Of a stretch of 48,119 bases of DNA, positions 1 to 48,119 are shown piece after piece. Position 1 is the stretch's first letter; each line of letters opens with the position of its first letter. Position numbers and translations under genes: made by a program. The notes beneath the pieces were generated by a model. The model had not been told where the DNA came from. It searched no databases and worked only from the letters and a program-made list of their open reading frames with translations. The DNA is from Thermodesulfobacteriota bacterium. Lineage in GTDB: Bacteria > Desulfobacterota_D > UBA1144 > Nemesobacterales > JAJCZQ01. The DNA lies in NCBI GenBank assembly GCA_965203965.1, contig CBDBDR010000009.1:1-48119 (forward strand), read 5' to 3'.

Positions 1-747
1 GCAACGGGAAAGTTAAACTCAAAGTACAGCATTTTGTATAATCCTAAAGATTATATCCAAATGACAATTGGCGGCCAATTACATTTGATCAAACTTATGG
101 AACTTCTCATGAAAGTTCCAAATACTAAAGTTTGTTCGGCTAATACGGATGGGATCGTAATTACGTATGATCATTCTCAAATTGAAAAGATTAAAAGTAC
201 TATGGGTGAATGGGAAAATCTTTTTAATTTTGAATTAGAATATGACGAATGGAAATGTTTGTATTCTCGCGATGTGAATAATTATTTTGCAATTACGATG
301 GACGGGAAAATTAAAGTAAAAGGCATATTCGCAGACGAGGGAGTTCATTTGCGGTTAGAAAAAAATCCAAGGGGAAAAATCATTTACGATTCCATAATTG
401 CGTTTGTGAGTGATGGAATTCCAATTGAAAGAACTATCCGAGAATGTAAAGATATAACAAAATTTGTATTTTGTCAACGAGTGACATCCGGCGCTATGTG
501 GAAATCTCAATACTTGGGACAAGTCATTAGATTTATTTATACAACGGACGGAGATATTATTACGCGTGCCGGAACAAATCATAAAGTTAGTGAATCTGAA
601 AATGCGTTCGCAGTTCAAAAACTCCCAAATTCTATTCCACAAAATTTATATTTTGAAAAGTATATTGAAAAATCGGAGGAAATTTATGAACAGATTGCGG
701 GTAAACGATATCCGAGAGGAATTCGCGAAAGTATTTTTGGACGATAG
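1..747 (+). CDS. DNA polymerase family B, C-terminal part (continues from 47087-48119 across the circular junction)
   Basis: Frame is open from base 1 (ATGKLNSKYSILYNPK...). Contains the motif C variant SANTDG and YSRDVNNY. Joining to the window end with a 1-nt overlap rebuilds motif B, KLPINSATGK. Confidence 0.9.
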   Translation, partial: ATGKLNSKYSILYNPKDYIQMTIGGQLHLIKLMELLMKVPNTKVCSANTDGIVITYDHSQIEKIKSTMGEWENLFNFELEYDEWKCLYSRDVNNYFAITMDGKIKVKGIFADEGVHLRLEKNPRGKIIYDSIIAFVSDGIPIERTIRECKDITKFVFCQRVTSGAMWKSQYLGQVIRFIYTTDGDIITRAGTNHKVSESENAFAVQKLPNSIPQNLYFEKYIEKSEEIYEQIAGKRYPRGIRESIFGR

Positions 748-1357
748 AAGGTCTACATTTTTAGAACTTCTCAGTGTATCTTTTTTAGCTGACGAAGACA
801 TCATATTCGGAAACCAAAACGATTATTGTCAATTAGAATTACAATGGTACTTATCTAAAAGTATGAACATTAATGATATGTGCGGAAAAATTCCAGAAAT
901 ATGGAAAAAAGTTGCAAATTCTACGGGGATGATCAATAGTAATTATGGAAATTTAATTTTTGGCAATGATCAATTAAACCAATTCCAAAAATGCATGTCT
1001 CAAATTATAACAAATAAAAATACAAAGCGGGGAGTTATGATATACTCTGGATCAGACGTGCATGACATTGCCACTGAAAATGGAAAAAATGATTTCATTT
1101 GTACGTATTCCGCACATTTAATAATTCGTAACAACGTATTAACTTATATTGTCAATATGCGAAGTAATGATGCAGTATACGGTTATAAGAATGATGTATT
1201 TTGGCATAAGTATATCCATAATTTAGGTCATATTGTATTAAAACAACAATATGACGGGTTGATAAAAGGTCCAATGTATTGGAATGTTGGAACTCTCCAC
1301 GTTTATGAAAAGCATATTAAGCTTGTGAAAAATTTTATTGAGGAATCAAGAATATGA
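686..1357 (+). CDS. dCMP hydroxymethylase (thymidylate synthase fold, T4 gp42-like)
   Basis: Motifs ELQWYLSKS, INSNYG, DFICT, MRSNDAVYGYKNDVFW and WNVGTLHVY closely follow T4 gp42, with Asp (KND) at the dCMP-specificity position. Start moved to ATG 686, which has GGAGGA at 675-680. Confidence 0.88.
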   Translation: MNRLRVNDIREEFAKVFLDDRRSTFLELLSVSFLADEDIIFGNQNDYCQLELQWYLSKSMNINDMCGKIPEIWKKVANSTGMINSNYGNLIFGNDQLNQFQKCMSQIITNKNTKRGVMIYSGSDVHDIATENGKNDFICTYSAHLIIRNNVLTYIVNMRSNDAVYGYKNDVFWHKYIHNLGHIVLKQQYDGLIKGPMYWNVGTLHVYEKHIKLVKNFIEESRI

Positions 1358-2532
1358 AAGTTGCGATCATATTTGGAAGAGGTATCGGTGCTTTTGGCGA
1401 ACCGACAATGATCAAAAACTTTATACAATTTTTAACTAAAAATGAACACACTGTGATAAAAATTGATTTGAGAACATCAATTTCAAGACGCGAAAATCAA
1501 GATACATTATTAACCGCTGATTTTTTCGTTGATCCGTTGATGCCGATTGATGGCCAGATTGTTGACGCAATAAATGAATGTGATATTGCATATTTTAGTT
1601 CAATTCCAGAAAAGTCTCAAGGACCCGATGTAGCCAGATTTAGAAAGTTAATAATGTTAATCACAAAACCGATAAAAACAATTATGACACATGAAAATGC
1701 ATTAAATATCATAAAAAAATCTGCAGAATTAAAAGAGATGTATTCGTTGTGCGATATCGGTTTTGCTCACAGCGCGGACGGATATATTGCAAATATTGTT
1801 GGCGGATCAACGCCGGTGTTTTGTCATCCAATGTTGATTGATATTAAAAAATTAAATCGTACAAATAAAAAGCCTAAAAACATATTGTTATATCTCGGCA
1901 GATTTAAGTCAAAAAATGATCCGGCGTTAATATCGCGAATGCGAAGATATTTACCAAATTGGGAATTGATGTATCTTGGTTGCAATTTTGGAATCGGCGC
2001 AATATCTGGGAGTTCGGATTGGAAAACTAATCGTTCGCCGTATTCTAAATTGCACAAACATATGATCGTTCGCGAGATATATTCGGCTAAAACGAAAAAT
2101 TATAGTTCGCAATCTGCCAAACATGGAGGAATTCGCGCGTATGATTATTATGAATATGATTTTGGAATGCAAAAGCTTAAAGAATCTAAGGCATGCTGGA
2201 CGGGTCCAAAATTTATAGAACCACATAATTTCGGCAATAGATTAGAATATACACAAATTGAATCATTCGCATTGTCATTACCAATTATCGCCAAATCGTT
2301 TGCAAATAATTTAAAATCTCCCGAAGATAAATTTTGGGGTGAATATGATGGACCATTAGTATTTGAATCCGAACTACAACTCGCAAAACAACTCATTAAT
2401 ATGTCTGACGATGAATGGACGTATAGAACAAACGAATGTCGTAAGCTCGTAAATAAATTTTATGACTTACAAGCTTGTGGAAAAAAACTTTTAGATATAA
2501 TTTGTAATCATGGAAAAAAAGTGCGCCGATAA
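1354..2532 (+). CDS. DNA alpha-glucosyltransferase-like glycosyltransferase 1 (GT-B, T4 AGT family)
   Basis: N-terminus MKVAIIFGRGIGAFG, plus INECDI, HSADG and LEYTQIE, all resembling T4 AGT. ATGA-coupled to the hydroxymethylase. Confidence 0.75.
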   Translation: MKVAIIFGRGIGAFGEPTMIKNFIQFLTKNEHTVIKIDLRTSISRRENQDTLLTADFFVDPLMPIDGQIVDAINECDIAYFSSIPEKSQGPDVARFRKLIMLITKPIKTIMTHENALNIIKKSAELKEMYSLCDIGFAHSADGYIANIVGGSTPVFCHPMLIDIKKLNRTNKKPKNILLYLGRFKSKNDPALISRMRRYLPNWELMYLGCNFGIGAISGSSDWKTNRSPYSKLHKHMIVREIYSAKTKNYSSQSAKHGGIRAYDYYEYDFGMQKLKESKACWTGPKFIEPHNFGNRLEYTQIESFALSLPIIAKSFANNLKSPEDKFWGEYDGPLVFESELQLAKQLINMSDDEWTYRTNECRKLVNKFYDLQACGKKLLDIICNHGKKVRR

Positions 2533-5773: not shown

Positions 5774-5895
5774 GACCTATGGACATATATTACTATTAAC
5801 CAAAAAGTTAAAAAAATTTTAAAACTGCTATTTACAAATATGAAAAAACGGTATATAATATAATTAAGAATAAAAAATAATGGAGGTATTTGAAC
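5735..5895 (+). repeat. Dispersed hairpin-promoter-RBS element, copy 1
   Basis: Hairpin AGTCCCTC-N11-GAGGGACT at 5743-5769, TTTACA(5831)-17 bp-TATAAT(5854), GGAGGT before ATG 5896. Confidence 0.92.
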
Positions 5896-7657: not shown

Positions 7658-8055
7658 AAGTAGGAAAAAGAATTGTATGGAAAGAAGCAGATATGACTTT
7701 TAGTGGTGTGATCCGAGAAGTTATAAACATATCTCCCACATCTGATCCAAGCTATATTTTGAAAATTGAATTAGATCATGGTAAAAAAATAGATCGTGGG
7801 ATCGGAACATTCGATAAGTTTGTAGTGATTTCTAAATTTTATCGTGATGGAAAATTGCATTCCTATAGTGAATCGTCAGTTCAGACTTGTGAACAAGCAG
7901 AACATTTAGTCAATATTCCGCCAAAAGAATTAGAAGGATCTTTAGACATGTGTATAAAAACTTTTAAGCTCGTAAGAATTGACCGTACTGAAAAGCAGTT
8001 GATGGAAAAAAAATTTATTTGCGGAGGTATCAAATATGGAAACAAGAAAGATTAA
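7654..8055 (+). CDS. Hypothetical protein (VGxRIxW family, see 19462 and 36015)
   Basis: 133-aa ORF, ATGA overlap with the preceding frame. Confidence 0.7.
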   Translation: MKVGKRIVWKEADMTFSGVIREVINISPTSDPSYILKIELDHGKKIDRGIGTFDKFVVISKFYRDGKLHSYSESSVQTCEQAEHLVNIPPKELEGSLDMCIKTFKLVRIDRTEKQLMEKKFICGGIKYGNKKD

Positions 8056-8293
8056 CGGGATCAAAATTAAAACCGGTGATCTTATAGAATTTCGGGTTTC
8101 ACCGAGAAATCGGGAATTTGTAAACAAGCAATTTGACGGGTTTAAATTCATAAGCGTTATAGATAACAAAGCAATAATGAATGCCCCTGGGTCTATCGTA
8201 TTTTGTGAAAAACTTTCTTACTTAAGGAAAGTAGGAATAAAACAATTTGGTCCTATTTCTTTTAAAAAGTATAAAGAACTTTCTAAAAGTTAA
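8036..8293 (+). CDS. Hypothetical protein, KINGIK family copy 1
   Basis: GGAGGT RBS. Clear paralogue of 16479-16742 and 42628-42915. Confidence 0.8.
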   Translation: METRKINGIKIKTGDLIEFRVSPRNREFVNKQFDGFKFISVIDNKAIMNAPGSIVFCEKLSYLRKVGIKQFGPISFKKYKELSKS

Positions 8294-8312
8294 AAAAATT
8301 TTAAAAATACTA

Positions 8313-8341
8313 TTTACATTTATGAAAAAACGGTATATAAT
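8313..8341 (+). promoter_or_regulatory. sigma70-type promoter (element promoter half)
   Basis: TTTACA-tttatgaaaaaacggta-TATAAT followed by the shared leader and GGAGGT. Confidence 0.85.
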
Positions 8342-8377
8342 TATATTGAGAACAAAAAATAATGGAGGTATTTAGAC

Positions 8378-8680
8378 ATGAAAAGAACTAAATTAATATC
8401 GGCATTAAATGTAAGTAATTATTCATGCGTAACAGTTTCCGTCAAAACAAAAAATGACCGCGCGTACATTAAGAATTGGAAAGATGTAACTATTTATTTT
8501 GGCTTTGAAAATAACAAAATGATTAAACTAGTTGCATGGAGCCATTTAAAAAAATCTACCGATCTTAAAAATGCCATTCACGCTGAGAGAATAATAAAAA
8601 AGATCATAAAAGATCTTAAGATAATTCCAAAAAGTACTGAGTCATTACTTGATAATACGTATATTGAAGTAGCTTTTTAA
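8378..8680 (+). CDS. Hypothetical cassette protein (100 aa)
   Basis: ATG directly after the element RBS. Confidence 0.75.
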   Translation: MKRTKLISALNVSNYSCVTVSVKTKNDRAYIKNWKDVTIYFGFENNKMIKLVAWSHLKKSTDLKNAIHAERIIKKIIKDLKIIPKSTESLLDNTYIEVAF

Positions 8681-8697
8681 TTAGAGGAGGTGATAAG

Positions 8698-8811
8698 ATG
8701 GAGCATATAATTATAGATAGAATGATTGTAAAGTTGGACAAATTACTCTTAAATTTTAACATCAATAACTTTTTAAGGCAAGAAAGTCCAATAATAGCAG
8801 CTCTTTTATGA
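8698..8811 (+). CDS. 37-aa ORF running into the first unit of the 113-bp array
   Basis: Strong RBS GGAGGTGA; MEHIIIDRMIVKLDKLLLNFNINNFLRQESPIIAALL. Confidence 0.5.
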   Translation: MEHIIIDRMIVKLDKLLLNFNINNFLRQESPIIAALL

Positions 8812-9775
8812 CCTTACTTCATAACGATTCTCAAATTTGAACCTTGTAACATGTATCGCTCTTAAATTTTAACATCAATAACTTTTTAAGGCAAGAAAGT
8901 CCAATAATAGCAGCTCTTTTATGACCTTACTTCATAACGATTCTCAAATTTGAACCTTGTAACATGTATCGCTCTTAAATTTTAACATCAATAACTTTTT
9001 AAGGCAAGAAAGTCCAATAATAGCAGCTCTTTTATGACCTTACTTCATAACGATTCTCAAATTTGAACCTTGTAACATGTATCGCTCTTAAATTTTAACA
9101 TCAATAACTTTTTAAGGCAAGAAAGTCCAATAATAGCAGCTCTTTTATGACCTTACTTCATAACGATTCTCAAATTTGAACCTTGTAACATGTATCGCTC
9201 TTAAATTTTAACATCAATAACTTTTTAAGGCAAGAAAGTCCAATAATAGCAGCTCTTTTATGACCTTACTTCATAACGATTCTCAAATTTGAACCTTGTA
9301 ACATGTATCGCTCTTAAATTTTAACATCAATAACTTTTTAAGGCAAGAAAGTCCAATAATAGCAGCTCTTTTATGACCTTACTTCATAACGATTCTCAAA
9401 TTTGAACCTTGTAACATGTATCGCTCTTAAATTTTAACATCAATAACTTTTTAAGGCAAGAAAGTCCAATAATAGCAGCTCTTTTATGACCTTACTTCAT
9501 AACGATTCTCAAATTTGAACCTTGTAACATGTATCGCTCTTAAATTTTAACATCAATAACTTTTTAAGGCAAGAAAGTCCAATAATAGCAGCTCTTTTAT
9601 GACCTTACTTCATAACGATTCTCAAATTTGAACCTTGTAACATGTATCGCTCTTAAATTTTAACATCAATAACTTTTTAAGGCAAGAAAGTCCAATAATA
9701 GCAGCTCTTTTATGACCTTACTTCATAACGATTCTCAAATTTGAACCTTGTAACATGTATCGCTCTTAAATTTTA
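8746..9775. repeat. Perfect tandem array, 9 x 113 bp plus a 13-bp partial unit
   Basis: Units start at 8746, 8859, 8972, 9085, 9198, 9311, 9424, 9537 and 9650; final CTCTTAAATTTTA at 9763-9775. Confidence 0.95.
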
Positions 9776-9790
9776 TGTTATAATATATAC

Positions 9791-10597
9791 ATGTTATTCA
9801 TACATCCCGTTAGAAATTCTCCACGTGATCAAATTGTTTCAAAAGAATTCCCCGTTGAAATTGAAAATAACATTGTAACGGTTCAAAACGATTTTGAAAA
9901 TATAAATATTTTATGGATGTGGAGAAGCGCGGGATTAGTCGATGTAAGTTCTCCGAATATTTCTTTCTTTTGGGATACCGATCAATTATACTATAATTCT
10001 TATGGCGCATTTGTCACTCAAGAAAAATCAATTGAATTTGCAAGCAACCCGGATTTTGATTGGATAATAGCATCTCCCGTAATCGGAGAAGTAAATCCTA
10101 TTCGTGCTTTCAAAGCTACGTTAGCTCCGTCAAGGAGAATAAAAAGAAGTGAAATCGGATTTTATCAAGTGTCTATCCGAAACGAAAAGATATTTGAATT
10201 TACAATCCCACTTAACAATGAGCCGGATAAAGACTTTGTAGAATTACTTGAACGTTTATCTGGACTTAACAATTTCGCCGTTTTACCATCTGGGCGTATT
10301 ACTAAGTTTGTAGATACGGAATACCCATATTTACAACCGGCGTTTATCCGAAATATGGCGGTGACACGATTTAGAGGATTTGAAGCTTTTCAAGGCGTGT
10401 ATGCACACGGTGTTAGTGGACAAATAACATTTGGAGAAGTTTCATTCGTGCACGACATAACAGTAGAACAAACAATATGTAATACCCCGCCGCCAGTACA
10501 AATAAATAGTATTTGGACAATAAACGGGAACGTTGTATTAATAGATAATAAAGTTATAATTGCTCCGGAGAATATAAATGAAGGAATCACAGCTTGA
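9791..10597 (+). CDS. Probable virion/tail protein
   Basis: 268-aa ORF upstream of the tail-fibre-like gene; function from context only. Confidence 0.45.
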   Translation: MLFIHPVRNSPRDQIVSKEFPVEIENNIVTVQNDFENINILWMWRSAGLVDVSSPNISFFWDTDQLYYNSYGAFVTQEKSIEFASNPDFDWIIASPVIGEVNPIRAFKATLAPSRRIKRSEIGFYQVSIRNEKIFEFTIPLNNEPDKDFVELLERLSGLNNFAVLPSGRITKFVDTEYPYLQPAFIRNMAVTRFRGFEAFQGVYAHGVSGQITFGEVSFVHDITVEQTICNTPPPVQINSIWTINGNVVLIDNKVIIAPENINEGITA

Positions 10598-19686: not shown

Positions 19687-19838
19687 AGTGTTAAATACCT
19701 CCATTATTTTTTATTCTTAATTATAATTATATACCATTTTTTCATATTTGTAAATAGTATTTTTACATTTATTTTAACTTTTTAATAGTAATATATGTCC
19801 ATAGGTCTTAAAGTCCCTCTATGTCACCCGGAGGGACT
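19687..19838 (-). repeat. Element copy 6 (full, minus strand)
   Basis: Promoter 19726-19754; hairpin 19812-19838 lies inside the 3' end of the glycosyltransferase gene. Confidence 0.88.
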
Positions 19839-21166
19839 ATGGTTACTTGTTTCTTATTCTTAAGAATGCGTAATAATTTAGAATTAATAACTGACGGAGT
19901 TGTTATTACAACTTCTCCCCGCGATCTGTAATCTAATGCTTCCGGAAAGTAAATGCTTAAGTGGTTTGATTTTTTTCTTTTTCCAGTTTTAAGAACATCG
20001 TCCAAAAAAACTTTACACAAATGGTTATAATCAAATAGCCGTGTTACGATATTTATGCATTCGTTTGTTCTATACGTCCATTCATCATCAGACATATTAA
20101 TGAGTTGTTTTGCGAGTTGTAGTTCGGATTCAAATACTAACGGCCCATCATATTCGCTCCAAAATTTATCTTCTGGCGACATGGCGTTGTTTGCGAAATG
20201 TTTAGAAATAATTGGAAGAGTCAATAGAAATGACTCAATTTGTGTATACTCCATGCGTGTTCCGTATTCGCGGGCGTCACTTAACATATACCCACACCAC
20301 GAAAATTTGGATTTGCCAAGTATTTCCATCCCAACATTATAATCATACGCGTCAAGTGCCGAAATCTTAGTACCCTTTGAAGTATTAAGTATATGTATTT
20401 GACCGTTTACACGACGTCGCGTGCGAATGATCAAATTGTTATACCAATGAGAATATGGTGCCGTGTTTGTCTTCCATTTGCCGGTGTAGTCGCATACGCT
20501 TGAAATGGAATATTCGCATCCCGTAAGTGTAAGTTCCCATCCCGGGATGTACCGGTACATTCTTGGAATGAGCGCCGGGTCTTTGAGTGGTGACATTCTA
20601 CCCATATACACTAACTCACGTTTGCGTTGATTTACTGGATTTCGCCAGTGATTAAACTTTTTACAATCAATCCATATTTTATTTTCTACTAATTTCAAAT
20701 TCGGAACGAACTTTTTAAAAGCTTTGTATGATTGTCCGGATAATGATTGAACTATTCCGTAATCACTCATTGCAAAGATTTCGCCCATCTGCAATGAAGA
20801 GTTGATAGTAACAGTAGAAATACCGTGGTCGTAAGCGACGATTATTGGTTTTGTAATTTTTTCAATACATTCGCGAAATCGGTCTATATGACCAAATTTT
20901 GCGATGGGATAGCTATGAATAATGATAATGTCTTGGAGATTGAGTAAGTCAATTATATCGTCCGCAACATTTACATCTTCATCGCCAACCGTTATAACTT
21001 TAGACTGCCATTTAATTAATGTTGATCTTAAATAAAGATTGCCGTTATTAAAGTCTATAATGACGACAGTATGTCCATTTTCATAAAGATATTGTTCAAA
21101 TATCTTCGCACCTCGTGACACCCCGCACCCGTCAATTCCTTTTCCAAATACAAAAGCAATGTTCAT
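19808..21166 (-). CDS. DNA alpha-glucosyltransferase-like glycosyltransferase 2 (T4 AGT family)
   Basis: MNIAFVFGKGIDGCGVS (compare the T4 AGT RGLEGCGVT motif), DIIIIHSYP, MEYTQIE; GGAGGT RBS. Confidence 0.8.
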   Translation of the reverse strand: MNIAFVFGKGIDGCGVSRGAKIFEQYLYENGHTVVIIDFNNGNLYLRSTLIKWQSKVITVGDEDVNVADDIIDLLNLQDIIIIHSYPIAKFGHIDRFRECIEKITKPIIVAYDHGISTVTINSSLQMGEIFAMSDYGIVQSLSGQSYKAFKKFVPNLKLVENKIWIDCKKFNHWRNPVNQRKRELVYMGRMSPLKDPALIPRMYRYIPGWELTLTGCEYSISSVCDYTGKWKTNTAPYSHWYNNLIIRTRRRVNGQIHILNTSKGTKISALDAYDYNVGMEILGKSKFSWCGYMLSDAREYGTRMEYTQIESFLLTLPIISKHFANNAMSPEDKFWSEYDGPLVFESELQLAKQLINMSDDEWTYRTNECINIVTRLFDYNHLCKVFLDDVLKTGKRKKSNHLSIYFPEALDYRSRGEVVITTPSVINSKLLRILKNKKQVTIVPPGDIEGL

Positions 21167-24585: not shown

Positions 24586-24740
24586 TCAGTCTCTCCGAGC
24601 GGGATAGAGGCGCTTTAAGACTTACAGATGTGTATTACTATTATCCAAAAACTTTAAAATAAATGTAAAAATACTATTTACATTTATGAAAAAACGGTAT
24701 ATAATTATATTGAGAACAAAAAATAATGGAGGTATTTAGA
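24586..24740 (+). repeat. Element copy 7 (degenerate hairpin, intact promoter)
   Basis: AGTCTCTC...GAGGCGCT at 24588-24614; the downstream part matches 34923-35048. Confidence 0.85.
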
Positions 24741-26990
24741 ATGAAAGAATTAACAAAAAAAGAACTTGGAAAACCAGTCGCAATTGAGCAGCTCCCGTTT
24801 GTTTCTTATGACCATCCAATTTCTCGCGGTGTTTGTCATGGATGTTATGGAGAAACTGAAAACTATTCGGTTTCCAGATGTGACAAATGTACTGGAAAAT
24901 AATTTCAAAAAATTTTAAAAATACTATTTACATTTATGAAAAAACGGTATATAATTATATTGAGAACAAAAAATAATGGAGGTATTTAGAATGAAAGAAT
25001 TAACAAAAAAAGAACTTGGAAAACCAGTCGCAATTGAGCAGCTCCCGTTTGTTTCTTATGACCATCCAATTTCTCGCGGTGTTTGTCATGGATGTTATGG
25101 AGAAACTGAAAACTATTCGGTTTCCAGATGTGACAAATGTACTGGAAAATAATTTCAAAAAATTTTAAAAATACTATTTACATTTATGAAAAAACGGTAT
25201 ATAATTATATTGAGAACAAAAAATAATGGAGGTATTTAGAATGAAAGAATTAACAAAAAAAGAACTTGGAAAACCAGTCGCAATTGAGCAGCTCCCGTTT
25301 GTTTCTTATGACCATCCAATTTCTCGCGGTGTTTGTCATGGATGTTATGGAGAAACTGAAAACTATTCGGTTTCCAGATGTGACAAATGTACTGGAAAAT
25401 AATTTCAAAAAATTTTAAAAATACTATTTACATTTATGAAAAAACGGTATATAATTATATTGAGAACAAAAAATAATGGAGGTATTTAGAATGAAAGAAT
25501 TAACAAAAAAAGAACTTGGAAAACCAGTCGCAATTGAGCAGCTCCCGTTTGTTTCTTATGACCATCCAATTTCTCGCGGTGTTTGTCATGGATGTTATGG
25601 AGAAACTGAAAACTATTCGGTTTCCAGATGTGACAAATGTACTGGAAAATAATTTCAAAAAATTTTAAAAATACTATTTACATTTATGAAAAAACGGTAT
25701 ATAATTATATTGAGAACAAAAAATAATGGAGGTATTTAGAATGAAAGAATTAACAAAAAAAGAACTTGGAAAACCAGTCGCAATTGAGCAGCTCCCGTTT
25801 GTTTCTTATGACCATCCAATTTCTCGCGGTGTTTGTCATGGATGTTATGGAGAAACTGAAAACTATTCGGTTTCCAGATGTGACAAATGTACTGGAAAAT
25901 AATTTCAAAAAATTTTAAAAATACTATTTACATTTATGAAAAAACGGTATATAATTATATTGAGAACAAAAAATAATGGAGGTATTTAGAATGAAAGAAT
26001 TAACAAAAAAAGAACTTGGAAAACCAGTCGCAATTGAGCAGCTCCCGTTTGTTTCTTATGACCATCCAATTTCTCGCGGTGTTTGTCATGGATGTTATGG
26101 AGAAACTGAAAACTATTCGGTTTCCAGATGTGACAAATGTACTGGAAAATAATTTCAAAAAATTTTAAAAATACTATTTACATTTATGAAAAAACGGTAT
26201 ATAATTATATTGAGAACAAAAAATAATGGAGGTATTTAGAATGAAAGAATTAACAAAAAAAGAACTTGGAAAACCAGTCGCAATTGAGCAGCTCCCGTTT
26301 GTTTCTTATGACCATCCAATTTCTCGCGGTGTTTGTCATGGATGTTATGGAGAAACTGAAAACTATTCGGTTTCCAGATGTGACAAATGTACTGGAAAAT
26401 AATTTCAAAAAATTTTAAAAATACTATTTACATTTATGAAAAAACGGTATATAATTATATTGAGAACAAAAAATAATGGAGGTATTTAGAATGAAAGAAT
26501 TAACAAAAAAAGAACTTGGAAAACCAGTCGCAATTGAGCAGCTCCCGTTTGTTTCTTATGACCATCCAATTTCTCGCGGTGTTTGTCATGGATGTTATGG
26601 AGAAACTGAAAACTATTCGGTTTCCAGATGTGACAAATGTACTGGAAAATAATTTCAAAAAATTTTAAAAATACTATTTACATTTATGAAAAAACGGTAT
26701 ATAATTATATTGAGAACAAAAAATAATGGAGGTATTTAGAATGAAAGAATTAACAAAAAAAGAACTTGGAAAACCAGTCGCAATTGAGCAGCTCCCGTTT
26801 GTTTCTTATGACCATCCAATTTCTCGCGGTGTTTGTCATGGATGTTATGGAGAAACTGAAAACTATTCGGTTTCCAGATGTGACAAATGTACTGGAAAAT
26901 AATTTCAAAAAATTTTAAAAATACTATTTACATTTATGAAAAAACGGTATATAATTATATTGAGAACAAAAAATAATGGAGGTATTTAGA
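24666..26990 (+). repeat. Perfect tandem array, 9 x 250 bp (promoter + RBS + zinc-finger ORF) plus a 10th promoter
   Basis: ATGs at 24741, 24991, 25241, 25491, 25741, 25991, 26241, 26491 and 26741; units identical by eye. Confidence 0.95.
24741..24902 (+). CDS. 53-aa CxxC-x11-CxxC zinc-finger protein (first of 9 identical copies; last at 26741-26902)
   Basis: MKELTKKELGKPVAIEQLPFVSYDHPISRGVCHGCYGETENYSVSRCDKCTGK; own promoter and GGAGGT RBS; absent from the ORF track. Confidence 0.85.
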   Translation: MKELTKKELGKPVAIEQLPFVSYDHPISRGVCHGCYGETENYSVSRCDKCTGK

Positions 26991-26991
26991 T

Positions 26992-27482
26992 ATGAGCAGA
27001 ATTGATTAAAAATAAGAACTTGGAAAACCAGTGAGTATGTTCAAGATTTATTGGACGGAATTGAATGGGAAAAAAGCATCGCGATAAGTTCATGATTAAC
27101 ATGAGAACATTTGGATCAGTAGAACTGAAAACGGAATTCGGTGTCCGGTTGCTGTGCAACTGCAGCATTACAAGCAATAAATGATCGCCCATTTAGTAGC
27201 AATGAAATTGGAGTTAGAAAAGACAGGGCTGCAGCACTAAATGAAGATACAGGAGACGTAGATAAATTTGAAGAGGTTATAAATTTACTACGAATTGGTG
27301 ATCTTAATAACTTCTTTATAGAGGCAGATGAAAAATTGTGCGGCGAGAACTACGAAATGATAAACACAATTGTTGACGATTGGGACGATTTGTGGAGGCT
27401 TAACCGGAGCAATTGGGAAAGTGAATCTGAACTGAATACAATACGAAAGTTTCAAAAAGTTCTGATTTCAAAAGGTCTTTAA
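26992..27482 (+). pseudogene. Copy of the 158-aa gene at 35050-35526 with a garbled 5' part (probable consensus artefact)
   Basis: Identical to the 35050 gene from about 27146 on; the first 155 bp carry indels matching the zinc-finger repeat unit. Confidence 0.7.
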
Positions 27483-27581
27483 TGATTAAATAATTTCAAA
27501 AAATTTTAAAAATACTATTTACATTTATGAAAAAACGGTATATAATTATATTGAGAACAAAAAATAATGGAGGTATTTAGA

Positions 27582-38815: not shown

Positions 38816-41341
38816 ATGGCAGAAGTTAGAGAACGTGTTACAATTAAATTTGCGGGAGATGATAAAGAACTCCGTAAGTCTATTCGCGATGTTGATAAAC
38901 AGATGTCTGACTCTCAACGTAAAGCCGGAGATGCTTATAAAAAATCGGGTCAAACTCATTCGCGAGTCGTATCTAAAAAGAAAAGAGAAGTTGGAGCATT
39001 AGAACGTTCTTGGAGTGCATTAATAAAAACAATTGGCGGATTAACAATTGGTTTTTCAGCAGCTTCTGTCGGGTTTATAAAATTATATAGAACACAAGAA
39101 CAAGCCGAGCGTCAATTAAACGCCGCGTTAAAAGCAGTAGGATTCCGTGTTGACAAAAATGTTTCTAAAATTCAAGCATACGCCGATAAGTTACAATCAG
39201 TTTCGGGGATTGGAGATGAAGCGTCTTTGCGTGTATCGTCATGGTTAGTACGGTATGCTCAATTGAATGAAGATCAAATAGTCCCGATGTTGGATACGAT
39301 AGCAAATGTATCGGCCTCTTCTCGTCGTGGACTAGAAGGATTTGAACGAATCGGGGAACGACTGGCCAGATCTTTGGCCGATCCATTAACGGCAATGGCT
39401 CAATTTGAAAGATACGGTGTATCAATTACAAAGCAAGAAGAGGAATACATACGCCAGCTTGTTGAAGGAAATAAAACTCAACAAGCGCGAGAAATTTTAA
39501 TTAATAAATTGGCGAAAGCGAATAAGGGAGCATTGGACGCGGCTATTGGGGGGACGACCCGATTTCGTACTATTACTGCGGACATCGGGGATATTGGAGA
39601 AAAAATAGGGAAAATTTTAACTAATGTATTTGAGCCTGCTACGATACGTGTTCAAAAGTTTGTGGGCAGTCTTAAAAATGATAAAGAGCTTTTTGATAGA
39701 GTTCGTGAAGACATTGAAGCTATTTCAAAGGCGGTTGGCGGATTAATTAGAATAACGTTTTCAGCATTTGCCGGGCCTATTGGGAAAATTTTAACAATAT
39801 TTAAAGGTCAAATTAATGATGTACTAAAATCTGTTAGATCTAACATTGATAAGACAATTAATATTTTAGAAAAATTCGCACGCGTCGCAGCTGGAATTTT
39901 TATTGTTACAAAAGTAAAGGCTTGGGGAACTGCTTTAGTGTTAGCGCTTAAAGGAGTTCGCGCGGGGTTTACCCTCGCACGTATTGCGGCATCGGCTTTT
40001 TGGGGGAGTGTAACTTTGGGATTAGGATTAGTTTTAGCATATTTGCCGGAAATTATTAATTTGGTCAAAAATAATTTTACGGCTATGAGCGAGTTGTTAT
40101 CTGGTGTTTTTCGTGCTATCGGATTTGGAGTTCAATACAACTTGGCAGTAGTTAAAAAAACGTTTTTTTCAGTGTTGGCAGAAATTGTTGAAAAAATTGC
40201 GAGTCTTCAAGATATTAAAGGTGTGCCGGATATTATTTCACAAGAGACGGTTGATAAATTTAGTGGGTTGTCAAAAAAGTATACGGATGATCTTTCTAAC
40301 TTAAGAGATAAAATACAAGATAACGCCAAAGGAATACGTCAAGCCGCGTCAAAATTGTCTCTTGATTTTTCATCCCCCAAGGTTGTAGATATTTTAGATG
40401 ATAAAGATACGGGAGATGGAACTGACACGGGAGATGGAACTGACACGGGAGATGGAACTGACACGGGAGATGGAGAAATTTCTCCACGAACAGATCTTTT
40501 TTCATTAACCCCTGAGCAAGTGAACCGTCAAATTGACTTGCTCAAATTAGCATTAGAAGGAAAAGAACAAGCCGAGATTGAATTTTGGAATAGAGAACAA
40601 GAGCTTAAAAAGTTACAACGGGAAATAGAAATTGCTGAAGAGTTATCCCATAAGGGAAAATTAAATGACGCTGAAACTCAACATTTGGCGCAAATGAAAA
40701 AATTGCACGATTTAAACCATAAACAATTAGAAAAAGATAAACGTGCTTATTATAATAGAACTTTGAAAGACAAACAAAAATTTGGACTTTCAGAATTGCA
40801 ATCAACTTTTGGAACATTAAGTTCTATTATTGGTTTAGAGGGTCGCGCCGCAAAACTTTCATCCAGTATTGGAAAAGCGCGAGCAATCCAGGGGTTAATA
40901 ACACAATTAAGAACCGCCGTTCCGAGCGTATTCACAAAAACATTAGACGCTATGTCGTGGATTCCAATTCCCGGCGCCGCACATGCGATAGCTGCTGCCG
41001 CCGCGGGAATTACTTCAGCGACAGCGACACGCGGTGTTGCGTCGGCAAAGTCTGTTCCGGAGTTGAATAGAACAGTAGCTTTAGCGAAAGGTGGAATGAT
41101 TGACGGAAATCCGGCGTTTGGGGATAATTATCGCACAATATTGCAAGCTGGGGAAGTCGTAGTTCCAAGAGAAAATTTTAACGAATTGAAAGAAAAGATA
41201 ATTAGAGATAATTTAGCAAATCCCCCAGTATTATCCGAGTCAGATGCTCCACGAGAGATTGATTTGTTAGTTGAGTTCAAAAGTGATGCTGCTAAATTAC
41301 TTCAAGAAATTCGCGAGGAAAGAGAGGTATTGGACTATTGA
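38816..41341 (+). CDS. Tail tape measure protein
   Basis: 841 aa, helical, QEQAERQLNAALK, LADPL..M..FERYGV, C-terminal LAKGG...GEVVVP. Confidence 0.9.
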   Translation: MAEVRERVTIKFAGDDKELRKSIRDVDKQMSDSQRKAGDAYKKSGQTHSRVVSKKKREVGALERSWSALIKTIGGLTIGFSAASVGFIKLYRTQEQAERQLNAALKAVGFRVDKNVSKIQAYADKLQSVSGIGDEASLRVSSWLVRYAQLNEDQIVPMLDTIANVSASSRRGLEGFERIGERLARSLADPLTAMAQFERYGVSITKQEEEYIRQLVEGNKTQQAREILINKLAKANKGALDAAIGGTTRFRTITADIGDIGEKIGKILTNVFEPATIRVQKFVGSLKNDKELFDRVREDIEAISKAVGGLIRITFSAFAGPIGKILTIFKGQINDVLKSVRSNIDKTINILEKFARVAAGIFIVTKVKAWGTALVLALKGVRAGFTLARIAASAFWGSVTLGLGLVLAYLPEIINLVKNNFTAMSELLSGVFRAIGFGVQYNLAVVKKTFFSVLAEIVEKIASLQDIKGVPDIISQETVDKFSGLSKKYTDDLSNLRDKIQDNAKGIRQAASKLSLDFSSPKVVDILDDKDTGDGTDTGDGTDTGDGTDTGDGEISPRTDLFSLTPEQVNRQIDLLKLALEGKEQAEIEFWNREQELKKLQREIEIAEELSHKGKLNDAETQHLAQMKKLHDLNHKQLEKDKRAYYNRTLKDKQKFGLSELQSTFGTLSSIIGLEGRAAKLSSSIGKARAIQGLITQLRTAVPSVFTKTLDAMSWIPIPGAAHAIAAAAAGITSATATRGVASAKSVPELNRTVALAKGGMIDGNPAFGDNYRTILQAGEVVVPRENFNELKEKIIRDNLANPPVLSESDAPREIDLLVEFKSDAAKLLQEIREEREVLDY
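40406..40474 (+). repeat. In-frame 18-bp tandem repeat (DTGDGT, about 4 copies) in the tape measure gene
   Basis: GACACGGGAGATGGAACT repeated. Confidence 0.9.
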
Positions 41342-43106: not shown

Positions 43107-44120
43107 ATGAAAAAAATAGTTGTAGACTTTGATGGAACAATTGCGTTAACTACTTCCACTGGATGGACTCCAAATATCCCCGTAATTCAAAAGATTAATG
43201 CTTTATTTGATCTTGAGTATGAAGTTACGATTCAAACGGCGCGTGGAAGTATTTCATGCAAAACACGCGAAGATGCTGAAAAAAAGTATAGAGCGATAAT
43301 TGAGTTGTGGCTTAAAGAACATGAAGTTAACTTTACACGGCTATCTTTTGAAAAGCGATTAGCTTTATTTTATGTAGATGATAAAGCTTTAACGCCGGAT
43401 GAATTTAAAAATTTACAAATTAAAAAGATAACTTCTGGGTGGAGCGGAAGTAAAATATTTTCAGACGGCAACAAAATCTACAAAGAAGAGCCGTCAGTTG
43501 AAAGGGCTCGGTTGGTGATGCAATGGTATGAAAGTGTTGATGGAGTTTTGGATATTCCAAAGTTTTATCACTATGTGGGAAATACTATAGAACTAGAGTT
43601 CATCCCAAATACGTGGGGATTAATTTCGGTACTTCCAAAGCACTTTAACTTAATCCAAAGCACTTTGGACAAAATGAAAGATTTAGAACCAAACGGTCAA
43701 ATGACATGTTGGCAATACTGGAAAAATATCATTCAGTACATTAAAGACTCTAATGTCCCGGAGTTTGTAAAGCACATGCCGATGCCGGATTTAATTCCGC
43801 GTACTTTTGGTCATGGAGATTTTGGAATAAAAAATATGCTTTTTAAGGGAGATAAATTATACCTAATTGATCCACTTCCGCATGCATTTATGTCAATATA
43901 CATTGATGTTGCCAAACTTCTCGGCAGTATGTTCATTCATTCTTATTACGGACCAACTATTAAATCATATTTTGACAAATTGACAACTCAAAATGAATTA
44001 GATAAAAGACTCATAAAAAAGTTAACGATTTGCGAAATTATTAGAACTTATAAGTACGCGACAAAAGATAGAAAGCCGGGATTAATACAAGCAGTTGAAA
44101 CGGCAGAAAAAACATTTTAA
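43107..44120 (+). CDS. HAD-family phosphatase fused to an APH/choline-kinase-like phosphotransferase
   Basis: HAD motifs VVDFDGT, TAR, YVDDKA; kinase motifs GWSGS, HGDFGIKN, LIDP. Confidence 0.82.
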   Translation: MKKIVVDFDGTIALTTSTGWTPNIPVIQKINALFDLEYEVTIQTARGSISCKTREDAEKKYRAIIELWLKEHEVNFTRLSFEKRLALFYVDDKALTPDEFKNLQIKKITSGWSGSKIFSDGNKIYKEEPSVERARLVMQWYESVDGVLDIPKFYHYVGNTIELEFIPNTWGLISVLPKHFNLIQSTLDKMKDLEPNGQMTCWQYWKNIIQYIKDSNVPEFVKHMPMPDLIPRTFGHGDFGIKNMLFKGDKLYLIDPLPHAFMSIYIDVAKLLGSMFIHSYYGPTIKSYFDKLTTQNELDKRLIKKLTICEIIRTYKYATKDRKPGLIQAVETAEKTF

Positions 44121-44176
44121 AAAACTATTTACATTTTAGAAAAGTTATAATATAGTATAATTAAGAGGTATTTTAT

Positions 44177-44584
44177 ATGACAAAACATTACGATGTTGGT
44201 TTTACATGTTCAACTTTTGATTTATTACATGCCGGCCATTTAGTGATGTTAGAAGAGGCAAAGTCTTTATGTAATACGTTAATTGTGGGTTTGTTAATTG
44301 ATCCCACAATTGATAGACCTCAAGAAAAACAAAAACCTATTCAAACCGTATTTGAACGGTATGTTCAACTTTCCGCGTGCCGTTATGTTGATAAAATCAT
44401 CCCGTTTGGAACTGAGCAAGAAATTATTGACATTTTATTGACAATCAATCCGGACATTCGGATTGTCGGAGAAGAGTATAAAGATATAGAATTCATCGGG
44501 AAGTCTTTATGCGAAATTTATTATAACAAAAGGAACCATTCTTTTTCATCGTCAGACTTACGCATGCGGTGTAAAGAAAATTAA
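44177..44584 (+). CDS. Cytidylyltransferase, glycerol-3-phosphate CT (TagD)-like
   Basis: STFDLLHAGH (HXGH), ERYVQL..CRYVD, RNHSFSSSDLR. Confidence 0.88.
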   Translation: MTKHYDVGFTCSTFDLLHAGHLVMLEEAKSLCNTLIVGLLIDPTIDRPQEKQKPIQTVFERYVQLSACRYVDKIIPFGTEQEIIDILLTINPDIRIVGEEYKDIEFIGKSLCEIYYNKRNHSFSSSDLRMRCKEN

Positions 44585-46881: not shown

Positions 46882-47087
46882 TAGGGACACGTTTGAAGTT
46901 AACCGAACTATGCGAAAAGCATAAAATAACTCCGACCAATTTAGCTAAACAGATTGGCGTTAGTTATGTTTCATTGTATAGATACAATAAAGACGCACGG
47001 TCAATTAGACAAACGACCGTGCGCGAATTAGCAAAATACTTTAAGCTAAACGCGGAAGAGCTATTTGAAAAAAAACATACGCCATAA
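46878..47087 (+). CDS. XRE/Cro-family helix-turn-helix protein
   Basis: LAKQIGVSYVSLYRY...LAKYFKLNAEELF. Confidence 0.85.
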   Translation: MIGTRLKLTELCEKHKITPTNLAKQIGVSYVSLYRYNKDARSIRQTTVRELAKYFKLNAEELFEKKHTP

Positions 47088-48119
47088 TGACTTTGTGGGC
47101 GTGGGACATTGAGTGCTTGTCAAATTATTTTTTAGTTATGGCAAAATCAACTGCCGGCGAAATTAAAACTTGGGAGTCTGATTCAATTATTGACTGGGGT
47201 GATAGTTTTGATGATTGGTTACGGTCAACATCCACGGTTGCCTTTAATTCTATTCATTATGATTTGCCGATGATTATGAGTACATTTGGAAATTTTGCAG
47301 ACGTGGGTGAATTAAAACAATTGTCTGATTCTATAATCGGAAGTCATAAAACACAAATGGAAGTTTATGGATATGCTAAGCAGATTGATCATATTGACTT
47401 ATTACTTTTGACGGGTGGTTTTTCAGGGCTTAAAGTTTATGGTTCTAGAATGCATTCTAAGAACTTAAAAGAAATGCCACAAATTCAAACCCGTGAGGAA
47501 GTAAAAAAGTATTGCTTGAACGATTTAGATATTACTTTAGATCTTTATAATACTTTCAAATCCCATATTGAAATACGAAAGACATTGTCTAAATTATACA
47601 ACATTCCAACATTACAGTATAAAGAGCCCGGGGTGTGCGAAAAAATAATGTCTAAATTATCTGGTGTTTCTAAATTTGATTCATTGCCAGCAAATCAAAA
47701 ATTTAAGTATGAAATCCCGGATAAATTAAAATTTGACAATATCTTTCTTAAAGGCTATACCAAGTTTATTTCGCAATTAGAATTTGAAGTTGTGAATTAC
47801 CGCATTGTAGTACCGCCGGAATTAAAAAATAAAACGCTAAGATTTGGCGGAAGCGTATTTAATTGTGGAATTGGGGGAATGCATTCACGGGAAAAAAATA
47901 TGGTTGTTGAGTCCACTAATAACATTCGTATCTTAAATATTGATGTAAGTTCGTACTACCCAATGTTAATGTTAAATTATAACCTTGGCGGAAATTTAGA
48001 AAAAAATAAAATCTTAGATACTTATCGGAGTATTTTGAAATTTCGGATGAAATCAAAAAAATCAGACCTTCCATCTGACAAAAAAATTGCTCAAGCCTTA
48101 AAACTGCCGATCAATTCAG
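47087..48119 (+). CDS. DNA polymerase family B, N-terminal part (3'-5' exonuclease and motif A); not in the ORF track
   Basis: MTLWAWDIE (ExoI), FNSIHYD (ExoII), YCLNDL (ExoIII), IDVSSYYP (motif A); ends KLPINS. TAATG coupling to the HTH gene. Confidence 0.9.
   Translation, partial: MTLWAWDIECLSNYFLVMAKSTAGEIKTWESDSIIDWGDSFDDWLRSTSTVAFNSIHYDLPMIMSTFGNFADVGELKQLSDSIIGSHKTQMEVYGYAKQIDHIDLLLLTGGFSGLKVYGSRMHSKNLKEMPQIQTREEVKKYCLNDLDITLDLYNTFKSHIEIRKTLSKLYNIPTLQYKEPGVCEKIMSKLSGVSKFDSLPANQKFKYEIPDKLKFDNIFLKGYTKFISQLEFEVVNYRIVVPPELKNKTLRFGGSVFNCGIGGMHSREKNMVVESTNNIRILNIDVSSYYPMLMLNYNLGGNLEKNKILDTYRSILKFRMKSKKSDLPSDKKIAQALKLPINS

Follow-up and report, generated by a model that had tools for sequence, protein, structure and literature searches.

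Why should a phage that encodes a gp42-like dCMP hydroxymethylase and two AGT-like glycosyltransferases also carry, side by side, a phosphatase-kinase fusion and a nucleotidyltransferase? The question is raised by two adjacent genes in a 48,119-nt stretch of DNA (here called the window). We think it probable that the pair makes a nucleotide-activated sugar, in all likelihood an NDP-heptose, which the two AGT-like enzymes move onto 5hmC in the phage DNA. The features from which the argument starts are these:

43107-44120, + strand: HAD-phosphatase/APH-choline-kinase-fold fusion, 337 aa
43107..43433, + strand: HAD-superfamily phosphatase domain of the fusion (residues 1-109), AfhF / 1xpj / EcbF-BcbF type, predicted sugar-bisphosphate phosphatase
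43434..44120, + strand: APH/choline-kinase-fold small-molecule kinase domain of the fusion (residues about 110-337), predicted anomeric sugar-phosphate kinase
44125..44156, + strand: promoter-like site in the 56-nt gap ahead of the nucleotidyltransferase (NTase) gene, TTTACA-17-TATAGT, 10/12 matches
44177-44584, + strand: HXGH (PF01467, cytidylyltransferase-like) NTase, 135 aa, predicted sugar-1-phosphate nucleotidylyltransferase

A sequence-only reading of this DNA had described adjacent genes with intact catalytic motifs at the head of a replication and modification run, and the open reading frame coordinates, the invariant motifs, and the gene order all bear this out. The two genes lie 56 nt apart, each behind an AGGAGG-like ribosome site (GAGGTG ahead of 43107 and AAGAGGT ahead of 44177). 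The site in the gap is promoter-like by consensus match only; it contains the recurrent CTATTTACATTT motif of this phage, which occurs 19 times, on the + strand only, against 1.36 expected. Gene order runs rightward from the tail genes through the HAD-kinase fusion, the NTase, a DUF2800 nuclease, a gp2.5-like SSB, an HTH protein, the DNA polymerase (its gene split across both window ends), the dCMP hydroxymethylase, and an AGT-like enzyme to the primase. The pair is placed among the replication genes of a lytic-looking phage with a 48-kb genome of siphovirus type. Homologues were found with E values down to 1e-60 to 1e-70, far beyond chance, and the family matches among PHROG profiles include phrog_7878 (3.6e-30). 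A search of phages at the DNA level gave nothing beyond one 62-nt match.

The HAD domain offers a link to a characterized enzyme. Its motifs (D7-x-D9-G-T, T44, K83, and D91-D92) do not vary across a family alignment of 38 members, and homology connects the domain to AfhF from phage HY126, whose solved structure (9iqw) is titled D-arabinose 1,5-diphosphate phosphatase in the PDB. Profile searches against the PDB returned 1xpj (4.9e-19) and AfhF 9iqw (2.1e-17), and structure comparison likewise gave 1xpj (Z 12.9) and 9iqw (Z 12.3, rmsd 2.6 over 103 residues). The domain also aligns with the HAD protein of the arabinosylating phage LC53 (hhalign probability 99, E 6e-18), and it matches phrog_1238 (1.1e-16) and TIGR01689 (3.9e-12, under the equivalog cut-off). 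A polynucleotide kinase/phosphatase reading (phrog_415, 5.9e-5) was dropped as generic HAD likeness. AfhE and AfhF are described in PMC13326640 as the UDP-D-arabinofuranose pathway of the arabinosyl-5-hydroxycytosine phages HY126, RB69, DLP3, and LC53; in the literature, we found the two names used in this arabinose-pathway sense nowhere beyond that source.

Equally invariant in the 38-member alignment are the kinase motifs K126, H236-G-D238-x4-N243, and I254-D255-P256. In a confident AF2 model (pLDDT 92.6), the kinase domain shares its fold with NahK, MTR kinase, and maltokinase, all of them anomeric sugar kinases: VIA-align scored LicA at Z 17.3, N-acetylhexosamine 1-kinase (NahK, 4ocj) at Z 15.6, MTR kinase (2pyw) at Z 15.4, and maltokinase at Z 12.8. 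Its nearest folds include choline and ethanolamine kinases. Foldseek matches were 2qg7 (1.1e-7) and RB69ORF052c (1.2e-4), and alignment with the C-terminal domain of the AfhE-like protein of LC53 was weak (hhalign probability 63, E 6.9e-5).

The HXGH motif of the NTase (H18-A-G-H21) and its scores over cut-off against PF01467 (7.4e-15, 55.8 bits, cut-off 21) and TIGR00125 (51 bits, cut-off 27.7) assign it, at the level of sequence, to the cytidylyltransferase-like superfamily; it also carries RYVD and S-S-S motifs like those of TagD. The best NCBIfam match is rfaE_dom_II (TIGR02199; 7.3e-21), yet the protein is not an HldE domain II equivalog because it reaches 74.5 bits against an equivalog cut-off of 181.5. 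Against TagD (TIGR01518) it scores 5.3e-14 and 52.4 bits versus an equivalog cut-off of 165.4. Among PDB sequences, its nearest solved relatives are phospho-alcohol cytidylyltransferases (ECT 3elb, 3.7e-17; TagD 1coz, 1.4e-13; CCT, 1.8e-6), the resemblance to TagD 1coz showing likeness at family level only. The JGI name for many relatives of the NTase is glycerol-3-phosphate cytidylyltransferase. Phage Ab1-TPeters has an NTase homologue (56% identity) flanked by a cupin GPI-like gene on one side and a PMM-like gene on the other, a setting that fits a sugar-1-phosphate substrate. In this isolate and in phiKT1024, no HAD-kinase gene stands beside the homologue. A search for longer fused forms found none, which is weak evidence.

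What the putative donor would be used on, and by which enzymes, is indicated by three further genes in the window:

686..1357, + strand: gp42-like dCMP hydroxymethylase, predicted source of the acceptor 5hmC (T4 dCMP hydroxymethylase 1b49, 5.5e-48)
1354..2532, + strand: AGT-like GT-B glycosyltransferase, paralogue A, predicted donor user (T4 DNA alpha-glucosyltransferase 1xv5, 3.9e-6; phrog_2888, 1.3e-19)
19808..21166, - strand: AGT-like GT-B glycosyltransferase, paralogue B (1xv5, 7.5e-8; phrog_2888, 4.9e-29)

The first of these, a thymidylate-synthase homologue that starts at 686 after GGAGG, is by its residues of the dCMP-hydroxymethylase type. It retains the Cys of DFxCT, the Asp of KND (D179 in T4), and the Asp of MRSND, the residue that 5hoC synthases change to Asn (residue criteria from section 28 of PMC13326640). 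The acceptor base is accordingly predicted to be 5hmC, not 5hmU, and 5-hydroxycytosine was rejected because the Asp169 equivalent is kept. Paralogues A and B are 40% identical, and their GT-B class is assigned by likeness to T4 AGT. Within the window, no glycosyltransferase adjoins the gene pair: paralogue A lies about 4.9 kb downstream of it, across the permuted ends, and paralogue B is on the opposite strand, about 22 kb away. Tet_JBP and DNA_methylase profiles had no match in the window. The match of the gene at 4961-5773 to PF18723 HMUDK_hel raised the question of thymidine hypermodification (5hmU kinase plus aGPT-Pplase), which was rejected as the donor context because the protein encoded there has no P-loop, no aGPT-Pplase was detected in the window, and the thymidylate-synthase homologue has dCMP-type residues.

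The distance between donor genes and transferases in the window is closed in many related viruses. Across 72 related viral loci, the NTase gene follows the fusion gene in 68, and the other 4 are truncated, with at most 192 nt left past the fusion. An AGT-like gene, homologous to paralogue B at an E value of about 1e-110 and matching PF11440 AGT, immediately precedes the HAD-kinase gene in 38 of the 72, and a GT1-like gene stands directly downstream of the pair in 28. Where both flanks are present (38 loci), the neighbour is AGT-like or GT1-like in 37, and in the remaining locus a Tet_JBP gene and a TAGT gene are directly upstream, such that the pair has a glycosyltransferase gene as its neighbour in 38/38, with three families represented. 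Likewise, a gp42-like gene occurs upstream in 33 of the 34 loci that have at least 4.5 kb on that side; in the 34th, a TET/JBP oxygenase replaces the gp42-like enzyme. Co-occurrence with gp42 and AGT homologues, which the sequence-only reading had proposed as a check, is what the survey found. In 14 loci, an open reading frame of 305-308 aa lies between the two genes; it had no Pfam, PHROG, or PDB match. A 287-aa phrog_1574 protein of the relatives, examined as a possible TET enzyme, had no PDB sequence match.

The fusion is a large and almost wholly viral family, with 210 clusters (50% identity) at E<=1e-30. Cellular genomes, one each of 185,579 species, yielded 4 full-length matches, all on short MAG contigs: 2 with the whole cassette, 1 with the NTase and an HMUDK_hel-like gene only, and 1 with a methylase-like gene only. 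Other cassette genes accompany the fusion in 3 of the 4.

We propose the following route. The kinase domain would phosphorylate the anomeric hydroxyl of a sugar phosphate taken from the host, for which D-glycero-D-manno-heptose 7-phosphate is the likeliest candidate; the fused HAD domain would then strip the distal phosphate from the sugar bisphosphate to leave a sugar-1-phosphate, which the NTase would join to an NTP (CTP or ATP) to give an NDP-sugar. The AGT-like GT-B enzymes would finally move the sugar onto 5hmC that had entered the DNA via the gp42-like dCMP hydroxymethylase. No phage isomerase is present. A three-enzyme kit for heptosyl-5hmC is already known, and the pair in the window is likely a further case. 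In their preprint on contig 53 (subclass III), Pyle, Lund, O'Toole, and Saleh report that a HAD-APH bifunctional enzyme, a cytidylyltransferase, and a GT-B are all essential in E. coli for heptosyl-5hmC (mono- and di-heptosyl-5mC), the heptose being assigned from masses of 449 and 641 u (bioRxiv 10.1101/2023.12.21.572611; journal version, according to PMC13326640, Cell Rep 2024;43:114631). Because all three phage enzymes were needed, E. coli's own ADP-heptose is evidently of no use to the contig 53 transferase. The pair had earlier been suggested to make a donor for AGT-like or aGPT-like enzymes. The AGT-like half of this suggestion is strengthened by the viral gene linkage, the homology of the HAD domain to AfhF, the contig 53 reconstitution, and the near absence of the fusion from cells; the aGPT-like half finds no support, as no aGPT-Pplase family was detected in the window and the predicted acceptor is 5hmC rather than 5hmU.

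A wider reading may be entertained, although we hold it tentatively and are more inclined to doubt it than to accept it. The pair could be a donor cassette, portable and confined to viruses, whose product is a nucleotide sugar not known from cellular metabolism (CDP- or ADP-heptose, or another sugar, as a non-host anomer) via a 1,n-bisphosphate from an APH-fold anomeric kinase. It might then represent a third independent kinase-phosphatase-nucleotidyltransferase assembly, serving three or more DNA-glycosyltransferase families unrelated to one another and both 5-hydroxymethylpyrimidine routes, and in this siphovirus from a sponge metagenome the two AGT-like paralogues might build an undescribed di-glycosylated 5hmC.

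Other explanations keep the acceptor and change the sugar or the order of steps. It is possible, but unlikely, that host arabinose-5-phosphate (or ribose-5-phosphate) is taken through a 1,5-bisphosphate to NDP-arabinofuranose and thence to 5hmC, as with AfhE and AfhF. The nearest characterized relative of the HAD domain is, after all, an arabinose-1,5-bisphosphate phosphatase, the kinase domain aligns (weakly) with the C-terminal domain of AfhE-like proteins, and Gram-negative hosts make arabinose-5-phosphate for Kdo synthesis. Yet neither the window nor the 72 loci yielded a homologue of arabinose-5-phosphate isomerase, which arabinosylating phages encode; the fold of the NTase differs from that of the AfhE N-terminal domain; and the contig 53 kit, identical in architecture, produced masses of heptose in E. 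coli, a cell that also has arabinose-5-phosphate. Rather improbable, too, is a reversed order in which the HAD domain frees the sugar from its phosphate and the kinase then phosphorylates the anomeric hydroxyl, with no bisphosphate formed. Table 1 of PMC13326640 gives such an order for the RB69 and DLP3 homologues (Araf5p dephosphorylated to Ara, and Ara phosphorylated to Araf1p), and NahK and MTR kinase, both fold matches, work on unphosphorylated hydroxyls. The text of the same source on HY126 (section 27), however, sets out a kinase, phosphatase, NTase route, with AfhE taking Araf5P to the 1,5-bisphosphate first and AfhF then removing a phosphate; 9iqw is entered in the PDB as a 1,5-diphosphate phosphatase; and a two-domain fusion fits the handing over of a bisphosphate.

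The remaining alternatives would take the pair away from sugar donors or away from phage DNA. In a Kennedy-type pathway, the kinase would phosphorylate an alcohol (ethanolamine, choline, glycerol, or similar), the cytidylyltransferase would make a CDP-alcohol, and a GT-B/TagF-like enzyme would attach the phospho-alcohol either to the DNA itself or to a sugar bound to it. The ECT, TagD, and CCT sequence matches and JGI naming of the NTase relatives speak for it, as do ethanolamine and choline kinases as the best fold matches of the kinase domain. We nevertheless regard it as very improbable, for it leaves the fused, invariant HAD domain, of a sugar-bisphosphate phosphatase family, without a role; the NTase reaches 52 bits with TagD, where the cut-off is 165; the transferases found as its partners belong to the AGT-like, TAGT, or GT1-like families; and the equivalent contig 53 kit yielded heptose masses. 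The analogy with TagD and CDP-glycerol drawn in the sequence-only reading is not favoured. We give still less credence to an effect on the host surface, whereby the genes would change the supply of LPS or capsule sugars, for instance to block superinfection. HXGH NTases do serve LPS heptose synthesis in bacteria, the best NCBIfam match of the HAD domain is a "capsule biosynthesis phosphatase" family, and PHROG classes phrog_1238 under morons and host takeover. Against this, no membrane or LPS transferase is visible in the window, in agreement with the earlier remark that no membrane-bound transferase is seen; the pair sits between DNA-modification genes in all 38 fully flanked loci, and among replication genes in a lytic-looking phage; and the near absence of the fusion from cellular genomes also argues against it.

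If the pair does supply a sugar donor, the phage would be freed from the nucleotide-sugar pool of its host, and self-supplied donors could give DNA sugars unseen by host restriction systems and by defences that target glucosyl-hmC. In the window, a donor kit of the contig 53 type is combined, within a small siphovirus-like genome, with AGT-like transferases and a gp42 route that acts before replication, and the neighbourhood survey shows such a kit traveling in the company of glycosyltransferases from three families. Homology to AfhF supplies a concrete, testable reaction order, one not given in the contig 53 passages of the preprint. The enzymes could also be put to use in the synthesis of unusual NDP-sugars and in 5hmC labelling.

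Compared with known systems, the pair resembles contig 53 in architecture, from which homology to the tested enzymes is inferred: both have HAD-like and APH-like domains in one polypeptide and a PF01467-type cytidylyltransferase. Contig 53 has a GT-B DNA glycosyltransferase that acts on 5hmC, described in the preprint as resembling T4 beta-GT, whereas the window has a pair of paralogues that are alpha-GT (AGT)-like; these lie about 4.9 kb and 22 kb from the donor genes, although in relatives such genes adjoin them (38/72). The 5hmC of contig 53 is reported to arise post-replicatively, through a C5-methyltransferase and 5mYOX/TET, in place of which the window has the gp42-like dCMP hydroxymethylase; and, unlike in contig 53, the genome here, 48 kb long and of siphovirus type, has its donor genes apart from those of the transferases. 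With regard to the arabinosylating phages, PMC13326640 describes an arabinose-5-phosphate isomerase, which the window lacks, and a 5hoC synthase with D169N, where the window enzyme keeps the Asp of the hydroxymethylase type. On the proposed route, the two pathways would share a logic of three activities: a kinase with a protein-kinase/APH fold that acts at the anomeric position, a small HAD phosphatase for the bisphosphate (the HAD domains being clearly homologous), and a nucleotidyltransferase; both would feed DNA glycosyltransferases. The domains are joined differently, however: AfhE unites its kinase with a GlmU/LicC-type NTase and leaves the HAD protein on its own, whereas in the window the HAD domain shares a polypeptide with the kinase and the separate NTase has an HXGH fold not homologous to the AfhE N-terminal domain.

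The bacterial ADP-heptose pathway comprises GmhA, HldE, and GmhB. It shares with the window the succession of kinase, HAD phosphatase, and HXGH nucleotidyltransferase, but the HldE kinase is ribokinase-like where that of the window has an APH fold, and the fusion pattern also differs. The glucosyl-hydroxymethylcytosine system of T4, finally, comprises gp42 and the alpha- and beta-glucosyltransferases, and the window matches it in its gp42-type enzyme (1b49, 5.5e-48) and its AGT-like transferases (1xv5, 7.5e-8 and 3.9e-6). No dCTPase or dNMP kinase was recognized in the window. T4 draws on host UDP-glucose and encodes no donor synthesis, whereas the phage of the window would bring its own donor pathway.

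Both genes of the cassette lie exactly where the sequence-only reading had placed them, each behind a Shine-Dalgarno-like site, in what is apparently a whole, circularly permuted phage genome of 48,119 bp. The DNA polymerase gene is split across the window ends, running off the right end (47087-48118) and resuming at 1-747. Tail genes precede the pair, and a DUF2800 nuclease, a gp2.5-like SSB, an HTH protein, the polymerase, a thymidylate-synthase homologue, an AGT-like gene, a primase and a PF18723 (HMUDK_hel) protein follow it in that order. The early region also holds two SprT-like ORFs, at 5890-6426 (178 aa) and, shorter, at 7127-7393 (88 aa).

Features of the window
1354-2532: AGT-like paralogue, matches T4 alpha-glucosyltransferase
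19808-21166: AGT-like paralogue, matches T4 alpha-glucosyltransferase
38816-41341: tape measure gene, among the tail genes
43107-44120, + strand: HAD-kinase fusion ORF, 337 aa
44177-44584, + strand: nucleotidyltransferase (NTase) ORF, 135 aa
8310, 34982, 35559, 42561 and 44125, + strand: example sites of CTATTTACATTT

The 56-nt gap between the two genes contains a promoter-like site with CTATTTACATTT. With at most one mismatch this motif occurs at 19 window sites, on the + strand only, against 1.36 expected, and probably marks the -35 region in a class of phage promoters. It also recurs, together with a GGAGG site and a 53-58-aa ORF with CxxC...CxxC, in every unit of a tandem array at 24666-27032 (250-bp unit, 9.5 copies, 99% identity), with extra copies of the motif beyond the array at 27515 and 27765. 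A Pfam search gave no match, and the repeat reflects either tandem amplification of a small gene or an error of assembly.

The fusion protein joins a HAD phosphatase domain (residues 1-109) to a C-terminal APH/choline-kinase fold, and its AlphaFold model is confident (pLDDT 92.6, pTM 0.83). Across a 38-member family alignment, D7, D9, T44, K83, D91 and D92 are invariant in the HAD domain, as are K126, H236-G-D238, N243 and I254-D-P256 in the kinase. The HAD domain matches phrog_1238 (1.1e-16) and, under the model cut-off, TIGR01689 "capsule biosynthesis phosphatase" (3.9e-12). Sequence profiles relate it to 1xpj (4.9e-19) and to 9iqw (2.1e-17), titled in the PDB [quoted passage not shown]; the modeled domain aligns with these structures at Z 12.9 and at Z 12.3 (rmsd 2.6, 103 residues), respectively. 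For the modeled kinase domain, Foldseek returned 2qg7 (1.1e-7) as well as APH(3')-Ia, MTR kinase and LicA, and VIA-align scored LicA at Z 17.3, N-acetylhexosamine 1-kinase (4ocj) at Z 15.6, MTR kinase (2pyw) at Z 15.4 and maltokinase (5jy7) at Z 12.8. APH-fold kinases that act on an anomeric hydroxyl are thus known.

The NTase carries its HXGH motif as HAGH (residues 18-21) and matches PF01467 (7.4e-15). In the NCBIfam search it clears the cut-off for the general TIGR00125 model only, the top models being rfaE domain II (74.5 bits, cut-off 181.5) and TagD (52.4 bits, cut-off 165.4); among solved proteins, those closest in sequence are ethanolamine-phosphate cytidylyltransferase (3.7e-17), TagD (1.4e-13) and CCT. 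With such mixed sub-cut-off and phospho-alcohol matches, homology points to neither the substrate nor the nucleotide. NTases of this family are very abundant and well conserved (4416 clusters at E<=1e-5 among 4427 candidates; top 120 clusters 67-78% identical), the HAD-kinase relatives being less similar (31-41%). In Acinetobacter phage Ab1-TPeters (6637-8201), an NTase homologue (56% identity) sits between cupin GPI-like and phosphomannomutase-like HAD proteins, an arrangement that looks like another way of supplying this family of NTases with a sugar-1-phosphate.

The thymidylate-synthase homologue, which starts at 686 downstream of GGAGG, is closest to T4 dCMP hydroxymethylase (5.5e-48) and 37% identical to T2 gp42. 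Under three residue criteria for base enzyme type taken from passages of PMC13326640, it retains the catalytic Cys and the Asp169 equivalent ("MRSND"; Asn in the LC53 5hoC-synthase homologue), and its specificity position is Asp ("KND", like T4 D179) rather than the Asn of dUMP enzymes. Its predicted product is 5-hydroxymethyl-dCMP. No dCTPase or dNMP kinase was recognized in the window. The AGT-like paralogues (to the T4 enzyme, 3.9e-6 for 1354-2532 and 7.5e-8 for 19808-21166) share a near-identical stretch of at least about 35 residues near the C-terminus despite 40% mutual identity, which suggests recent gene conversion. The PF18723 protein (4961-5773, 270 aa) resembles 5-hmdU DNA kinases in their helical domain alone (8.3e-39) and lacks a P-loop; on a Clostridia MAG contig the HAD-kinase/NTase pair is immediately followed by a homologue of this protein (6.8e-15; L081, 3587-4414), so it may belong to the sugar-5hmC pathway.

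The fusion protein was used to scan IMG/VR, and the six-frame ORFs of the 72 resulting loci were searched with the window's proteins. The NTase gene lies 3' of the fusion in 68; the other four have at most 192 nt of sequence past the fusion gene. Among these 68, the ORFs are contiguous or overlapping in 51 and separated by 869-898 nt in 17. In two of these loci a 305-308-aa ORF, with homologues in 14 loci, fills the gap; it found no match in Pfam, PHROG or PDB sequence searches and may be a sugar-tailoring enzyme.

Features of related viral loci
L065 11019-11945: 305-308-aa ORF between HAD-kinase and NTase genes
L042 10998-11915: the same
L042 12345-13547: PF00145 methylase-fold gene
L013 11426-12622: the same
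L065 13632-14858: the same
L015 (145-kb viral contig) 7763-9978: donor pair with Tet_JBP and PF20691 genes ahead

The co-occurrence with gp42 and AGT homologues that the sequence-only reading had offered as a check is borne out. In 38 of the 72 loci the gene that abuts the fusion gene on its 5' side encodes a relative of the 452-aa AGT-like protein in the window (E about 1e-110) and matches Pfam PF11440 (DNA alpha-glucosyltransferase). In 28 others a 413-aa protein abuts the 3' side of the NTase gene; we only infer that it is a glycosyltransferase, because its Glyco_trans_1_2 match is weak (0.0028, below cut-off). Both neighbors are absent in six loci. In five of these the sequence does not cover the flank concerned; in the other, L015, the pair is immediately preceded by a Tet_JBP oxygenase (6.3e-23) and a TET-associated glycosyltransferase (PF20691, 7.9e-12), which by its family match brings the glycosyltransferase families found beside the pair to three. 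Wherever a locus extends 1.5 kb or more upstream and 2.5 kb or more downstream (38 loci), a glycosyltransferase-type gene touches the pair. Of the 34 loci whose upstream flank reaches 4.5 kb or more, 33 have a gp42-like gene in it, and in L015 the TET enzyme takes its place. Just 3' of the cassette, 61 of the 72 loci carry a PF00145 C5-cytosine DNA-methylase-fold gene, in phages that also have a gp42-like enzyme.

The HMUDK_hel protein, polymerase, primase and SSB of the window have no homologue in any of the 72 loci, so the cassette travels between unrelated phages, many of them T4-like (gp45, UvsX and dCMP deaminase present). Full-length fusions make up a large family, with 3655 representatives at E<=1e-3 and 210 at E<=1e-30. 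A pattern scan of limited sensitivity, covering one genome each of 185,579 cellular species, confirmed six stretches, all on short MAG contigs; of the four full-length ones, two carry the whole cassette, one only the NTase and an HMUDK_hel-like gene after the fusion, and one only a methylase-like gene. Three of 30 matching records hold the fusion (Agathobaculum phages AB434P2 and AB434P3, its only cultured carriers, and one unannotated faecal contig), and 27 match the HAD part alone.

Passages of PMC13326640 describe how, in arabinosylating phages, the C-terminal kinase of AfhE converts Araf5P to the 1,5-bisphosphate, the HAD enzyme AfhF takes off one phosphate, and the GlmU-like N-terminal domain of AfhE yields the UDP-sugar. 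The HAD domain of the window's fusion is clearly homologous to AfhF, and the kinase domain shows a weak alignment to the C-terminal domains of AfhE-like proteins (probability 63%, E 6.9e-5; RB69ORF052c 1.2e-4), from which we infer the same reaction order. The kinase domain would make a sugar bisphosphate first and hand it within the fusion to the HAD domain, which would remove one phosphate; the final activation would fall to the HXGH NTase, unrelated to the GlmU-like domain. An order in which the phosphatase acts first seems distinctly unlikely. No sugar-phosphate isomerase homologue was found in the window or the 72 loci, so the starting sugar phosphate should be host-derived, heptose-7-phosphate being the likely precursor.

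A pentose donor built from host arabinose-5-phosphate would agree with the AfhF homology but is unlikely, given the missing isomerase and the heptose masses obtained with an equivalent kit. A Kennedy-type CDP-alcohol route would fit the solved structures closest to the NTase and the kinase; we consider it very improbable, as it leaves the invariant HAD domain without a job. Host-surface modification, the alternative kept by the sequence-only reading, is contradicted by the gene neighborhoods and by the almost wholly viral distribution of the family, and we give it hardly any weight. That reading's main proposal, that the fusion and the NTase make the activated donor for the AGT-like enzymes, is supported by the viral-locus linkage and the AfhF homology.

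Heptose is our best guess for the sugar, on the basis of architecture shared with the contig 53 kit (HAD-APH bifunctional enzyme, cytidylyltransferase and GT-B; Pyle et al., bioRxiv 10.1101/2023.12.21.572611) rather than of orthology, the kits being compared by description rather than by sequence alignment. In that work, mono- and di-heptosyl-5mC arose in E. coli only with all three contig 53 enzymes, heptose being assigned there by mass (449 and 641 u). The preprint's main text contains no word beginning "kinase" and no "ADP-heptose," and the passages used here set out no order of reactions; PMC13326640 lists the work as Cell Rep 2024;43:114631. In its predicted function, the module is a further example of an experimentally demonstrated type of donor kit. 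The present analysis adds the homology of the HAD domain to AfhF with a testable reaction order, the association of the donor pair with glycosyltransferases of three families and with two ways of making the hydroxymethyl base, and its presence in a small siphovirus-type genome, apart from its transferases.
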